Assembly (NCBI GenBank): GCA_963729605.1
Contig: CAVSNY010000007.1
Coordinates: forward strand, 736,001-800,000
Direction: 5' to 3'
DNA length: 64,000 bases
Origin: an uncultured Gammaproteobacteria bacterium
GTDB taxonomy: Bacteria; Pseudomonadota; Gammaproteobacteria; DRLM01
Shown here: piece after piece, positions 44,674-49,103 of the stretch
How the letters are laid out: each line of letters starts with the position of its first letter
Numbering within the stretch: the stretch's first letter is position 1
Notes under the pieces: model-generated
Told to the model about the DNA's origin: nothing
Database searches by the model: none
What the model saw: only the letters and a program-made list of their open reading frames with translations
Position numbers and translations under genes: made by a program

Positions 44674-45816
44674 TTAACGCGCCGGCGCGGTCGGCGCCGT
44701 GGTTGCCCAATCGTCGGGCGCGCGGCGCACCGGCCGGAAGATATCGATCTTGCGAAAATATTGATCGGCTATATATACCCGCCCCGTTTCGTCCACCGCC
44801 ACCCCGGCTGGCAAATAAAATTTGCCCGGCTTGCTGCTCTCGTCCCGATTGCCGATGTGCATCAGGATCTGGCCTTGCGGGTTGAAGAGCTGGACATTGC
44901 CGAAGGCGGCGTCGGCCACGTAAATGGTACCTTCGGCGTCGGTGGCGATGCCTTTGGGTCGGGCGAATTGGCCGGGGAAACGCCCCACTTCGCCGAAGGC
45001 GAGGCGAAAACTCCCGTCGGCCGCGAAGCCCTGCACCCGGAAATTGCCGCCGTCCACCACGTACACGCTGCCGTCCGCGGCGGTGGCGGCCTGCAACGGC
45101 AGATTGAATTGGCCGTTGCCGGTGCCGCGGGTGCCGATGGTTTGCAGCAAGGCACCGCTGCGCGGATCGAGCACATGGACGTGATGCTGCTCGCTGTCCA
45201 CCCCGCCCACATCCACCACGTAAAGCCGCTGGCCGTCCGGGCTGAGGGCGACCCCCGAGGGCCGGCGCAGCTCGGCGTCGCTGCCGAGGACGCGGAGGTG
45301 CTTGCCGCCGGCGTCGTAGACCTGCACCCGCCGCGCGCTGACGTCGGCGACGTAGATTTCGTTATCGGGCGACAAGGTGATGCCGATGGGTTTTTGCAGC
45401 CGGCCCGGCTCGCTTTGGCCGAACTGGAGGAAGCGCTTGCCGGCGATGTCGAACAACAACACCGCGCTTTGCGCGGTGTCGGTGACGTAGACCCGCCCGC
45501 CGCGGGCGGCGACGCCGTAGGGTTTCACCAGGCCTTTGACTTCCTCGCCGCGGCCGGTGGCGAGTTCGCGCCAGCGGGCGAAGCCGCTCAACTGCTCGAC
45601 GTCTTCGTTGATGCGCAGGGTGCGTTCGTAGATGAAACGCGCCTCGTCGGGCGGCGGCGGATAGACGGGCGGTTCAAGCCGCGGGGCGGGCGGGGCGCTG
45701 GCGCAGCCGGTCAACAGGCCCAGCACGCATAACGCGACCAGACCCGGCTTTAGGGCGCCTCTAAAAACCCGCTGAAACCGCGATGGCGGTGTTGGAAACG
45801 TGCTCAAAATACTCAT
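44674..45816 (-). CDS. NHL-repeat (6-bladed beta-propeller) lipoprotein
   Basis: Lipobox LTGC; VYPPPPDEARF; repeats LVKPYGVA, LQKPIGI, LRRPSGVA, FNLP, FARPKGIA, FYLPAGVA. Confidence 0.9.
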   Translation of the reverse strand: MSILSTFPTPPSRFQRVFRGALKPGLVALCVLGLLTGCASAPPAPRLEPPVYPPPPDEARFIYERTLRINEDVEQLSGFARWRELATGRGEEVKGLVKPYGVAARGGRVYVTDTAQSAVLLFDIAGKRFLQFGQSEPGRLQKPIGITLSPDNEIYVADVSARRVQVYDAGGKHLRVLGSDAELRRPSGVALSPDGQRLYVVDVGGVDSEQHHVHVLDPRSGALLQTIGTRGTGNGQFNLPLQAATAADGSVYVVDGGNFRVQGFAADGSFRLAFGEVGRFPGQFARPKGIATDAEGTIYVADAAFGNVQLFNPQGQILMHIGNRDESSKPGKFYLPAGVAVDETGRVYIADQYFRKIDIFRPVRRAPDDWATTAPTAPAR

Positions 45817-45891
45817 GACTCCGTGTGCAGCGCGCTTTTTCGCCCATTTCCGCCTTGCCTTCGCGCCTTGATCGAATTTTTAGAGGCGCCC
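45753..45891. mobile_element. MITE family B (139 bp, perfect 15-bp TIR, TTTA target duplication)
   Basis: GGGCGCCTCTAAAAA (45753-67) / TTTTTAGAGGCGCCC (45877-91); TTTA at 45749-52 and 45892-95. Confidence 0.88.
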
Positions 45892-45892
45892 T

Positions 45893-46690
45893 TTATTTGA
45901 TATGGCATGTTTCACACAGGCGATCGGCGCGGGTGCGCAGCAGGAGCGTCACGTCGGGATCGTGGACGTTGTGGCAGGTGGCGCACTCGACTTTGCCGTC
46001 ATAAAGTTTGATGCCGTTGTCGAAACCGTAGGGGCTGTCGGGCGTGCGAAAATCCTGGTCGTTGTTGTTGAGGCCGGCATAGGTCATCGAGATGGCGTGG
46101 TCGTTGGTGAGATCGGTGCCGATGTGTTTGATGGCGATGCTGTGCGCCACCCGGCCGTCATGGCATTTGCCGCAGCTCATTAAATCGTTGCCGCCGTTGA
46201 GGCGCAAATGCAGCGCCGCGTCCTCGCTGCTCTGCCAGCCGTCGGGTTTGAACACCGTCATGTCCACGCCCATGGTGCCGTCGTGGCAGGACAGGCACAG
46301 CAGGCTGATCGGGCTGGGCGTGCGCACCTTGTTGTCGAGGGTGCGGGTATCGTAGATGTCATAGGCGCCGGTGGCGGGGACGAAACGATTCCAGCCCGGA
46401 ATGCCGCCTTGTCCGGCGCTGTCCTGCTCGGGCCGTTCGGGGGGCAGATGGCAATAGACGCAGGAGTTGCCGTAATCGGAGAAGGCCACTCCGGGCATGG
46501 CCACCACGCCGGCGCGCTGGTTGAGTCCGGTGAAGTCGTGTTTGGTGCCGAGCAGGGTGCCGGCCAGGGCATTCGCGCCGAGCAGCAGCGCGGCGATGAT
46601 GGCCGCGGCGCCGGCGATACGGGTGGCTGACGAGGCGCGCTCATGCGAACGCATCGGTGCGGGTGCGCTGTGCTGTGCTGGGCGTGTCAC
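45893..46690 (-). CDS. Pentaheme cytochrome c, OmcE-like motif order
   Basis: Signal peptide; TKHDF, CVYCH, WNR, CLSCHDG, CGKCH, GTDLTNDHAI, VECATCHNVHDP, LCETCHIK; start GTG 46690 or ATG 46654. Confidence 0.88.
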   Translation of the reverse strand: MTRPAQHSAPAPMRSHERASSATRIAGAAAIIAALLLGANALAGTLLGTKHDFTGLNQRAGVVAMPGVAFSDYGNSCVYCHLPPERPEQDSAGQGGIPGWNRFVPATGAYDIYDTRTLDNKVRTPSPISLLCLSCHDGTMGVDMTVFKPDGWQSSEDAALHLRLNGGNDLMSCGKCHDGRVAHSIAIKHIGTDLTNDHAISMTYAGLNNNDQDFRTPDSPYGFDNGIKLYDGKVECATCHNVHDPDVTLLLRTRADRLCETCHIK

Positions 46691-46877
46691 TGCGTGCAGA
46701 ACCTTTCCGCTTGATTTTGGCCGGGAACGGCAGTCTAGTTATGACTGGTCCAAGAGTAGCGCAATTCATTTATTTGCGCCACAATGATGCCCGCCCCGGA
46801 GAATATATGCCCGCCGCTGCGGCGGTCCGGGTCATATGCGAATGTCTTAACCCAGCGGAACATCCGACAGCCTCACG

Positions 46878-47924
46878 ATGACTATGCGCGCCGCGGCCTT
46901 CGCCGCCCTTACAGTCTTGACCGTGCTGATCGCCACCCCGGCCTCCGCCGCGGTGGACGGCGCGGCGGTGTACGTCGAGCATTGCCAGGTCTGCCACGGC
47001 GACAAAGGCGACGGCAATACCCGCGTGCGGCGGGGTTTGACGCCGCCGCCGCGCGACTTCACCAGCGCGCGGGCGCGCCAGGAGTTGAGCCGCGAGCGCA
47101 TGATCAATTCGATTGCCCACGGCCGGCCCGGCACCGCCATGGTGGGATTCGGTCAGCGCCTGTCGGAAGAGGAGATCGCCGCGGTGGCCGATCACATCCG
47201 CGCCAGTTTCATGACCGCCCGTGACGGCAAGGCCGAGCCCCGTCCTGCCAAACTGGTGTTGGGCGAACAATTGTACGTGCGCAATTGCGCCGTGTGTCAC
47301 GGCGACAAGGGCAGTGGCGCGATGTGGACCCAGTCGAGCCTCAACCCGGCGCCGCGGGACTTCACCTCGCCGGCGACCCGCGAGGAATTGAGCCGCGAGC
47401 GGATGATCAACTCGGTGACCTTCGGCCGGCCCGGTACGGCGATGATGTCCTTCAGCAAACGGCTTTCTCCCGCCGAGATCGAGACGGTGGTCGACTATGT
47501 GCGCGCCACCTTCTTTTTGAAGGAGCCCGCCCTGCCGCCCGAGCACGCGCAGCGGGTCCAGGCCGACATGGCGCAGCCCTTTCCCAACGGTTTGCGCGGC
47601 GACGCCGCTTGGGGACGGGAGTTTTACGAACACAATTGTTTCACCTGCCACGGCAAGGAAGGCGACGGCAAAGGGCCGCGCTCGAAATTCATCAATCCCA
47701 AGCCGCGTAATTTCCTCGAAACCGATTCACGCGCGCGGTTGAACCGGCCCGCCCTGTTCGACGCGGTGCGCGACGGGCTGCGCGGCACGGTGATGCCGGC
47801 CTGGGGCAAGGTGCTCAGCGAACAGGAGATCGCCAACGTGGCGGAATATGTGTTCACCGCCTTCGTCCATCCGGCCGCCGCCTCCGCCCCCCCGGCGGAT
47901 AAAAAAAAACTGAACGCCCCGTAG
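46878..47924 (+). CDS. Tri-heme cytochrome c (three class I His/Met domains); N-terminal half of a possible hexaheme fusion
   Basis: Signal peptide; CQVCH, CAVCH, CFTCH each followed by PxPRxF and GxxGTxM. Confidence 0.92.
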   Translation: MTMRAAAFAALTVLTVLIATPASAAVDGAAVYVEHCQVCHGDKGDGNTRVRRGLTPPPRDFTSARARQELSRERMINSIAHGRPGTAMVGFGQRLSEEEIAAVADHIRASFMTARDGKAEPRPAKLVLGEQLYVRNCAVCHGDKGSGAMWTQSSLNPAPRDFTSPATREELSRERMINSVTFGRPGTAMMSFSKRLSPAEIETVVDYVRATFFLKEPALPPEHAQRVQADMAQPFPNGLRGDAAWGREFYEHNCFTCHGKEGDGKGPRSKFINPKPRNFLETDSRARLNRPALFDAVRDGLRGTVMPAWGKVLSEQEIANVAEYVFTAFVHPAAASAPPADKKKLNAP

Positions 47925-48868
47925 CCGCCAGCGCCGCGCAAATCGCCCGCGGCAAGCAGGTCTATAACGAACGCTGTTATTTCTGTCACGGCTACAACGG
48001 CGACGCCAAGACCTTGGCCGCCAGCTATCTGTCACCTCCGCCGCGGGATTTCACCAAGAGCGATCCCGCCAGGCTGAGCCGGGAAAAAATGATCGCCGCC
48101 GTACGCGACGGCCGGCCCGGCACGGCCATGAAAAGTTTCTCGACGCTGTTGAACGAGCAGGATATCGCCGCCGTGGTGGACTTCGTCCGTGCCACCTTCA
48201 TCGACCAGCGCGGTATCAACACTTATTACCATACCGTTGAAAACGGCTGGCCCGATCATCAACGCTACGCGGCGGCCTTTCCGTTCGCCTTGGGCGAGAT
48301 CGCGCTGGACACGCCGTGGGAGGAATTGACCCCGGCCCAGCAGGCGGGCAAACGTTTGTTCATGTCGAGTTGCATCAGTTGCCACGACCGGGCGCGGGTC
48401 AACGACGAAGGCGTGGTGTGGGACCCGCGCTCGGTGTCGTTTCCGCGCGGGGGCTACCGGCATGATGTCGAGCAGGATAAAAAAGTGGACGCGGTGAGCG
48501 GGGCGACACCCTACGCCAAACACGATAAGCCGCCCAAGCTGGAAAAGGCCACGGCGCAGGAGCGGCGCGGCGAACAGTTGTTTCAGGCCAATTGCGCGTT
48601 CTGTCACGCCGCGGACGGCACGGCGCGCAATTGGATCGGACGGTTTCTCGAGCCCCATCCCCGCGACCTCACCGACGCCGCGGCCATGAAGGGGATGGGG
48701 CGGGCGGAAATCAAAGAGGCGATCCGCGAGGGTGTGCCGGGCACGCCGATGTCGGCGTGGAAGCATGTGCTGCCGGATCAGGACATCGACGCCATCGTCG
48801 CCTATATCGTTCGGGTCTTTCATCCGCTGCCGGCGGTTCCCGATCGGCCTCCCGCCCCCCGGCCTTGA
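47903..48868 (+). CDS. Tri-heme cytochrome c C-terminal module in the -1 frame, lacking its own start and signal peptide
   Basis: Frame open from 47903 (after TAA 47900-02); CYFCH at 47975-89 precedes the first canonical start (TTG 48014); also CISCH and CAFCH. Confidence 0.85.
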   Translation, partial: KKTERPVAASAAQIARGKQVYNERCYFCHGYNGDAKTLAASYLSPPPRDFTKSDPARLSREKMIAAVRDGRPGTAMKSFSTLLNEQDIAAVVDFVRATFIDQRGINTYYHTVENGWPDHQRYAAAFPFALGEIALDTPWEELTPAQQAGKRLFMSSCISCHDRARVNDEGVVWDPRSVSFPRGGYRHDVEQDKKVDAVSGATPYAKHDKPPKLEKATAQERRGEQLFQANCAFCHAADGTARNWIGRFLEPHPRDLTDAAAMKGMGRAEIKEAIREGVPGTPMSAWKHVLPDQDIDAIVAYIVRVFHPLPAVPDRPPAPRP

Positions 48869-48916
48869 TATTCGCGCTTTCGCTTTGCGGCCGCGATCCT
48901 TATCATCGGTATTTAA

Positions 48917-49062
48917 GGACGCGCTGGATAATTACACCTGGAATTTTCAGAGCAAGGGCAGCAAGAAGGCGATTTTCGCCGCCTTTCATGTTCAACGGTT
49001 AACACCCATGAACAGGCGGCACATTCATCTGCCGCAGGCCCTTTGAATAAATCAGCGGTTCC
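48917..49062. mobile_element. MITE family A copy 2 (TTAA direct repeats)
   Basis: GGACGCGCTGGATAATTAC ... GAATAAATCAGCGGTTCC, TTAA at 48913-16 and 49063-66; internal blocks shared with 15089-15242. Confidence 0.75.
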
Positions 49063-49103
49063 TTAAGCTTATCGGATTGAATGACCAGCGAGGCGGTTGA
49101 GAC

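Follow-up and report, generated by a model that had tools for sequence, protein, structure and literature searches.

How can a cytochrome reading frame be expressed that has no start codon ahead of its first heme motif and no export signal of its own? The question is raised by a locus in a 64,000-nucleotide (nt) stretch of DNA, here called the window, from an uncultured Gammaproteobacteria bacterium (GTDB lineage DRLM01; NCBI GenBank assembly GCA_963729605.1, contig CAVSNY010000007.1, positions 736,001 to 800,000). In this locus, an open reading frame (ORF1) for a tri-heme c-type cytochrome ends shortly after a run of nine As (A9), and a second frame (ORF2), shifted by -1, leads from the run through three further heme domains. 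A preliminary description of the window had proposed that slippage or -1 frameshifting at the A9 gives 3-heme and 6-heme isoforms of one protein, and the comparative analyses described below favour recoding of this kind. Judged from the sequences, the locus is probably one gene whose programmed -1 recoding by RNA polymerase slippage yields a tri-heme product and a hexa-heme product of 663 amino acids (aa). Recoding as such, be it by the polymerase or by the ribosome, appears very likely. That RNA polymerase slippage is its main mechanism seems fairly probable, and both mechanisms may contribute.

The features of the locus are collected in Table 1. Everything listed in the preliminary description, i.e., the coordinates, the A9, the TAA in the -1 frame, the heme motifs and the end of ORF1 (GAT AAA AAA AAA CTG AAC GCC CCG TAG), was found again in the sequence. 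The N terminus of ORF1 reads MTMRAAAFAALTVLTVLIATPASA followed by AV, with the cut inferred from the A-S-A pattern, and this predicted signal peptide is the sole export signal in the locus.

Table 1. Features of the candidate recoding locus and its neighbourhood, with positions in the window
Feature	Position	Strand	Description and basis
ORF1 (0 frame)	46878..47924	+	348 aa, tri-heme class I c-type cytochrome; product without slip
Predicted Sec-type signal peptide	46878..46949	+	MTMRAAAFAALTVLTVLIATPASA; cut from the A-S-A (A-x-A) pattern
CxxCH motifs of ORF1	46983-97, 47286-300, 47637-51		
TAA shutting the -1 frame	47900..47902	+	directly 5' of the run; sequence
A9 run	47901..47909	+	0-frame AAA AAA AAA (KKK), holds in-phase A_AAA_AAA; sequence
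0-frame stop TAG	47922..47924	+	4 codons 3' of the run; sequence
ORF2 frame (-1)	47903..48868	+	three further heme domains; 321 open codons, TGA 48866-68
CxxCH motifs of ORF2	47975-89, 48371-85, 48593-607		
Five-heme cytochrome	45893..46690	-	265 aa, five CxxCH, divergently transcribed; sequence, Pfam
NHL-repeat beta-propeller protein	44674..45816	-	lipoprotein-like N terminus, downstream of the five-heme gene; PF01436, E 1.3e-30

ORF1 matched PF13442 in three stretches (E 1.6e-42, 144 bits; Pfam cut-off, 27). ORF2 reached 110 bits as a Pfam class I cytochrome in two stretches, its third CxxCH lying in the middle, where no class I match was obtained. Domain 3 of ORF1 spans residues 243-325; in ORF2, the first domain begins near residue 7. 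Since Pfam domain limits lie on either side, the junction is an inter-domain linker, in agreement with the earlier claim that the frame changes between complete domains. The earliest ATG, GTG or TTG in the ORF2 frame is a TTG at 48014, 3' of the first heme motif of ORF2 (heme 4 of the long form), and the stretch from the run to this motif had a maximal 10-aa hydropathy of 1.18, compared with a median of 2.54 in stand-alone ORF2 genes. The absence of an early start codon and of a signal peptide, both pointed out before, was thereby borne out, and ORF2 is therefore expressible only as a C-terminal extension of ORF1. An additional A or a ribosomal -1 slip would lead to the same 663-aa hexa-heme protein (344 + 319 residues, by arithmetic); the loss of one A leads to AAC TGA and thus to a stop at once.

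According to the polymerase slippage model, ordinary transcription and translation would produce the secreted tri-heme cytochrome. In some transcripts, RNA polymerase would slip on the nine T:A pairs and add one A, and on this A10 mRNA translation would pass from ORF1 into the -1 frame to give the hexa-heme cytochrome, which would use the ORF1 signal peptide for export and heme attachment. Transcripts short of one A (A8) would stop at AAC TGA and also give the tri-heme form. The A9 would set the ratio of the short to the long isoform. That the polymerase and not the ribosome makes the shift, how large the shifted fraction is and that both isoforms are needed are points that we infer.

Is the A9 real, and could it be due to chance? 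Miscalled homopolymers are common, as are pseudogenes with frameshifts, and one genome cannot separate either of them from recoding. The split could then be a sequencing error that hides a true A10 and a single ORF, the main alternative in the preliminary description, or the remnant of a decayed gene. The sequence evidence on run length comes from assembled contigs, from which rare variants drop out. Contigs of two other strains, from other samples, span the junction and keep the A9, with 0 gaps and with substitutions at 9 and 17 positions; thus, two further strains also have A9. Indeed, all five sequences of the window's genus or species are A9 (genomes G000, G001 and G003, contigs X1 and X18). 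When metagenome contigs were scanned for the junction of the window with 8 to 11 As, two stretches were retrieved, both of them unrelated chance matches.

The genome of the window (3.48 Mb, 61% G+C; window at C7:736001-800000) has 391 A/T runs of length 7, 83 of length 8, 3 of length 9 and 0 of length 10 or more, and the A9 at the junction is one of just those three. A model of independent bases predicts 2.3 runs of at least nine, and hence an A9 somewhere in this genome is unsurprising in itself. What argues against chance, as far as the compared loci tell, is that the run is kept at the same junction and in the same frame relation in 32 distinct loci. The other two length-9 A/T runs of the genome (C7:67513-67521 and C6:118045-118053) lie outside the window. 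One of the two is a T9 on the sense strand of a small hydrophobic membrane-protein ORF (…AAGFFLVKG…), and the other lies between genes, 5' of one that begins with a signal peptide.

These 32 loci were collected as follows. ORF2 was searched in 11 other genomes of the window's family, which gave a strong orthologue in 10 and weak matches in G002. Of the 11 family loci, window included, nine have T-A9, L011 has A8 and L010 lacks the junction; identity of ORF2 within the family is 58-92%. A scan of 185,579 species-representative genomes with ORF2 gave 112 confirmed relatives, of which 80 were kept, making 91 loci together with the 11 family loci. Of the 91, 35 have an A8-A10 run in the stretch from domain 3 to heme 4 (class A), and 32 class A loci were left after removal of three duplicates. 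All of them are labelled as Gammaproteobacteria or lineages within. Recurrence of the split together with an ORF1 ending in KKK, which the preliminary description had proposed as a check, was found at the same position in 10 of the 11 family loci (5 genera), and 22 other gammaproteobacterial loci show it too. All 10 family loci that have the run have ORF2 in the -1 frame, and this holds throughout class A. The remaining family locus, L010 (G009:C30:62230-66015), was rejected as a valid locus: at about 1495-1850, domain 3 leads at its end straight into mid-domain 4 with a change of frame, as after a deletion between the homologous domains or a collapse of the assembly. It was omitted from counts and tree as a broken or mis-assembled copy.

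Run length is almost constant among the 32 distinct loci, with A9 in 29, A8 in two (L011 and L032) and A10 in one (L072). One additional A-run locus, L102, was found beyond these 32. The run is read as AAA AAA AAA in 29 of the 32 and is offset by one base in L030, L032 and L072. The distance from the run to the 0-frame stop, taken over 31 A-run loci, has a median of 3 codons (range, 1 to 18). The flanks from -30 to +30 are essentially unconserved, the commonest base making up 29-77% per column, and Lys codons elsewhere in class A genes are 42% AAA (265 AAA, 364 AAG). The run is under purifying selection while its surroundings vary. In 21 of the 31 loci the 0-frame stop is TAG, which probably just reflects that the -1 frame encodes a conserved (V/L)-A there (GTA GCC or CTA GCC).

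ORF2 itself has exactly three CxxCH motifs in its frame in 90 of the 91 loci and two in L010, and on this comparison it is under selection; in none of the 91 is the ORF2 open frame a six-heme fusion. An artefact or decay would have to recur, with length and frame unchanged, in 32 distinct loci that come from a variety of studies and assemblers, and again in the two independent contigs, and would have to keep ORF2 open although its identity falls to 58% in the family and lower beyond. A clade with a heptamer in place of the run, described below, is split in the same way without any homopolymer. Sequencing error or gene decay is therefore a highly improbable explanation; the A9 split is, as these loci indicate, no sequencing error.

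The family also occurs in states without the run. In 49 loci, ORF1 and ORF2 are separate genes (class B), mostly from Betaproteobacteria (Aromatoleum, Rubrivivax, Piscinibacter, Sulfuritalea) with six gammaproteobacterial loci in addition. Here, ORF2 has a start codon of its own (ATG, GTG or TTG) and, behind it, a signal peptide or lipobox (signal peptides and start codons as assigned by a simple hydropathy script). In 25 of the 49, as we read the sequences, this start shares bases with the ORF1 stop (ATGA, GTGA or TTGA). Five further loci (class C: L036, L050, L051, L054, L070) have neither run nor start codon nor signal peptide; instead, a long overlap of the two frames holds a G_GGA_AAG heptamer in the correct phase. 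As to the nearest relatives of class C, L029 and L032 have an A run plus heptamer and L041 has an A run alone. In the sister clade made up of these eight loci, G_GGA_AAG is in phase in seven, with GGAG (GGGG in L070) 13-14 nt upstream, and 3' of the heptamer the loci differ by changes that leave the -1 frame peptide (EVGGYQH) as it is. G_GGA_AAG is named among the three most efficient heptamers in Escherichia coli (PMC4066793; this and the other papers cited are drawn on in the portions available). In L029 and L032 (about 2771-2836), the A9 or A8 run is followed about 50 nt downstream by the in-phase G_GGA_AAG, and the 0-frame stop comes 0-1 codons after the heptamer, which leaves two successive chances to enter the same -1 frame.

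The maximal mean hydropathy over 10 residues before heme 4 had a median of 0.57 in class A (32 loci) and values of 0.81-1.30 in class C, compared with a median of 2.54 and a minimum of 1.94 in class B (49 loci). Hydropathy thus splits the classes, and a recoding signal is present exactly where ORF2 cannot be made or exported alone. The proposed tie between recoding and an ORF2 without start codon and signal peptide was in this way upheld for both signals, the A run and the heptamer.

In-frame fusions exist as well. A search of 5.8 billion proteins for longer relatives gave 14 of them (P0001-P0014), with 567-785 aa and 5-6 hemes. KKK stands at the junction in six (P0004, P0008-10, P0012, P0013), P0013 reading ADKKKLNGETV..., and the junction of P0007 is LKKTE (residues 323-327). 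In an AlphaFold model of P0007 (mean predicted local distance difference test score, 72.9; predicted template modelling score, 0.29), the helical domains are well predicted and the linkers are of low confidence, and one such linker (residues 324-329) overlaps the LKKTE junction. Four candidates were rejected: P0015 and P0017 are long calls in which the N-terminal half looks translated out of frame, ahead of a normal signal peptide plus ORF2; P0016 has a different architecture, and P0018 was a weak match. Homologues that are uniformly fusions or uniformly separate genes, named beforehand as a contrary outcome, were not what was found; all three states exist.

DNA encoding P0010 (L101) has an in-frame A9 at the junction (1660-1668), and stops lie 1 and 6 codons past the run in the other two frames. 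The default product of L101 would accordingly be the six-heme form, and slippage would yield the three-heme form. A second A9 lies inside the ORF2 part of L101 (1982-1990, SQKKTRY) with several A7 runs nearby, which limits the weight of this case.

The other switch considered in the preliminary description, phase variation, fared less well. Replication slippage would toggle the chromosome between A9 (tri-heme only) and A10 (hexa-heme) in subpopulations, and such homopolymers are indeed slippery for DNA polymerase also (PMC3711429); the KKK at the junction of the six fused relatives named above would fit alleles of this kind. But run length is almost invariant: 29 of the 32 loci have an A9, and every one of the 32 is in the split state. 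The five sequences of the same genus or species are all A9, although contigs hide minor A10 alleles. Moreover, L101, the sole in-frame locus with DNA examined, has A9 and not A10, and the heptamer clade has the same -1 split without a homopolymer. We regard phase variation as improbable.

A quick IQ-TREE tree of the ORF2 part (100 rows, unrooted, with support from the Shimodaira-Hasegawa-like approximate likelihood ratio test only) was used to place the states. It omits L021-L023 (duplicates of L002, L003 and L005), L010, and L094 (cut at heme 1). Class B requires two changes on the tree, with 43 rows in one clade, the fused forms require six, and class C requires one, beside L029, L032 and L041. 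From their placement, the A-run loci span most of the depth of the tree. ORF2 of L098, from a record labelled as a Chitinophaga pinensis metagenome-assembled genome, fell within the Piscinibacter clade beside L093; its contig is probably mis-binned or the record mislabelled.

Which machinery makes the shift? An A9 lies in the range of homopolymers (about 8-9 or more A/T at the frame junction) expected for polymerase slippage, and homopolymers of at least 8 are typical of transcriptional realignment (PMC3711429). All nine As are kept though a heptamer needs seven, and we also count it as pointing to the polymerase that A/T runs of length 8 number 83 in the genome, those of length 9 just 3 and longer ones 0. 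No conserved RNA structure was found upstream or downstream of the run (mean z, -0.10 upstream and -0.45 downstream; 31 loci, mononucleotide shuffles), and the window has a weak hairpin upstream of the run (z, -1.6). Likewise, no conserved GGAG-like upstream stimulator was found in the flanks of the A-run loci. The stimulatory element of a -1 ribosomal frameshift cassette is thus missing from the A-run loci as a conserved feature, a non-conserved or unusual stimulator being possible. No promoter-like sites were found in 46500-49200, and terminator-like sites were at chance level (5 versus 2.8 ± 1.7).

The same two isoforms would arise from a homogeneous A9 mRNA if the ribosome shifted, with two Lys-tRNAs slipping by -1 in tandem on the A_AAA_AAA at 47903-47909, an in-phase heptamer of the X_XXY_YYZ type. 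A -1 heptamer is in phase in 32 of the 32 class A loci (A_AAA_AAA, A_AAA_AAC or A_AAA_AAG), also in the A8 loci (A_AAA_AAC in L011, A_AAA_AAG in L032), the direction is always -1, the 0-frame stop follows within a median of three codons, and the sister clade has a classical G_GGA_AAG with upstream GGAG. However, the A runs have no conserved structure or GGAG-like stimulator, and in E. coli, heptamers that lack a stimulator shift at about 0.3% (PMC4066793). A heptamer has no need of the first two As of the run, yet these are invariant in the 29 loci with phase 0, and the genome encodes both tRNA-Lys(UUU) and tRNA-Lys(CUU). A shift made mainly by the ribosome is therefore rather unlikely, if a good deal less so than phase variation or an artefact.

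Several points weigh against polymerase slippage at a conserved A run. With a heptamer in phase inside every A run, the sequences fit a ribosomal shift too, and the sister clade clearly uses a ribosomal-type signal. Polymerase slippage should ignore phase, yet phase 0 accounts for 29 of the 32 runs and phase 2 for none; shared descent and the coding of KKK can explain this bias. The A-run loci are kin, so that 32 loci stand for far fewer independent events, and all A-run genomes are metagenome-assembled. On the tree, the A-run label changes nine times, four of these changes being forced by well-supported branches. Finally, of the four sequencing runs compared, the metatranscriptome runs X19 and X20 had no coverage of the junction, and the X18 contig, from a run labelled 'RNA?', is A9, as is expected for the majority species or for DNA.

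Known systems offer close parallels to RNA polymerase slippage on the A9. In Citrobacter rodentium tssM1 (and in tssM of Yersinia pseudotuberculosis), transcriptional frameshifting occurs on a poly-A tract, and both forms of TssM1 and their ratio are required (PMC4256274). As in tssM1, a cellular, non-mobile gene is broken just 3' of an A run, and as in tssM1, where the polymerase adds As, a short form and a full-length form with extra C-terminal domains would result, here by presumed slippage. Unlike tssM1, which has an A11 and encodes a type VI secretion system membrane protein, the window has an A9 in the gene of a periplasmic c-type cytochrome, and the site is kept in at least 32 genomes of many lineages, alongside fused, split and heptamer versions.

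The tau and gamma proteins of dnaX are made by transcriptional slippage on an A9 in Thermus thermophilus and by -1 ribosomal frameshifting on A_AAA_AAG in E. coli (PMC5009743, PMC3711429). The cytochrome family resembles dnaX in that one family would give two products, via a homopolymer or via a heptamer with a Shine-Dalgarno-like element, depending on the lineage, and L101, with its in-frame A9 and near stops in both other frames, mirrors the layout of Thermus dnaX. The genes are unrelated, the shifted product is shorter in dnaX but longer in the window, and the ratio of the cytochrome isoforms is a matter of reasoning from sequence.

Frameshift product reached 63%, 40% and 10% with magnesium chelatase cassettes whose runs are counted as 11, 9 and 7 As (PMC3711429), and by analogy these figures may be taken as the best available estimate of the capacity of an A9. 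In the -1 cluster of magnesium chelatase, several genera likewise have two ORFs of this cellular enzyme linked by a conserved poly-A; the protein is a different one, and as far as the available portions show, transcription versus translation is unsettled for it, too (PMC3711429). Insertion sequence orfA-orfB pairs (the IS3/IS1 heptamers and the elements that use slippage) share the overlapping ORFs with the second in -1, the A-rich slippery site and the fused product (PMC5009743, PMC4066793). Unlike these elements, the gene in the window is non-mobile, has secreted redox products and lacks a conserved stem-loop or pseudoknot at the A9. No recoding in a bacterial c-type cytochrome was found in the literature searched, although the supplementary cluster tables of PMC3711429 and PMC4066793 could list one; in their available portions, PMC5009743 mentions cytochromes only for mitochondrial genes, and the word 'cytochrome' does not occur in PMC3711429 and PMC4066793.

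If recoding is confirmed, a respiratory/redox electron-transfer protein, widely kept in sulfur-cycle-type Gammaproteobacteria, would join a short list. Among bacterial chromosomal genes that are neither mobile nor of phage origin, copA and csoS2 belong to this list of programmed frame changes. The other entries are few, namely dnaX, prfB, Shigella type III secretion genes, tssM and magnesium chelatase (PMC5009743, PMC3711429, PMC4256274). The richest interest is in the comparative series of fusion, A9, heptamer and separate genes. The family has built-in natural controls (fused, separate, heptamer) for the question whether the mechanism matters or only the ratio of the products.

A broader, more tentative possibility is that the two-isoform output itself is the selected trait. 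The cell might need a fixed ratio of tri-heme to hexa-heme protein, as with the TssM1 forms or tau/gamma, and four modes of co-expression might have been exchanged for one another: the in-frame fusion, the A9 slip site, the G_GGA_AAG heptamer with GGAG, and overlapping separate genes each with a signal peptide. L029 and L032, with run plus heptamer, and L101, with its in-frame A9, might then have been caught in transition. If this were true, the family would be a natural series in which recoding is a stage on the way to gene fusion or fission, and would show a slip site moving between polymerase and ribosome.

For annotation, the consequences are practical. A mechanical ORF call of the window began ORF2 at the TTG at 48014 and gave a product of 284 aa without its first heme motif and without export signal. 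Gene callers would start ORF2 there or flag a pseudogene, and heme counts and electron-transfer inventories would then be wrong. Automatic annotation of the locus is likely wrong in most of these genomes, and the remedy would be to annotate a single gene with two products.

The protein is a chain of class I c-type cytochrome domains (PF13442/PF00034) above the Pfam gathering threshold. It could not be assigned to a named cytochrome family (CcoP, c6, SoxX, etc.), all NCBIfam matches being below cut-off (best, ccoP with 96 versus 180 bits), and a sequence search of the PDB gave domain-level matches only (best E, 2e-14). Distant relatives share the five-heme and NHL-repeat genes at 44674-46690, including loci of the separate-gene type. 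The neighbourhood is present again in L025, L033 and L040, where a minus-strand ORF of 261-270 aa with five CxxCH lies at the equivalent position, and it is reduced in L042 and L047. The recurring arrangement suggests one conserved electron-transfer module. The five-heme cytochrome probably belongs to the same module as the candidate recoded gene, which together with its neighbours would presumably form a periplasmic electron-transfer module. The gene that comes after the recoded gene is argC.

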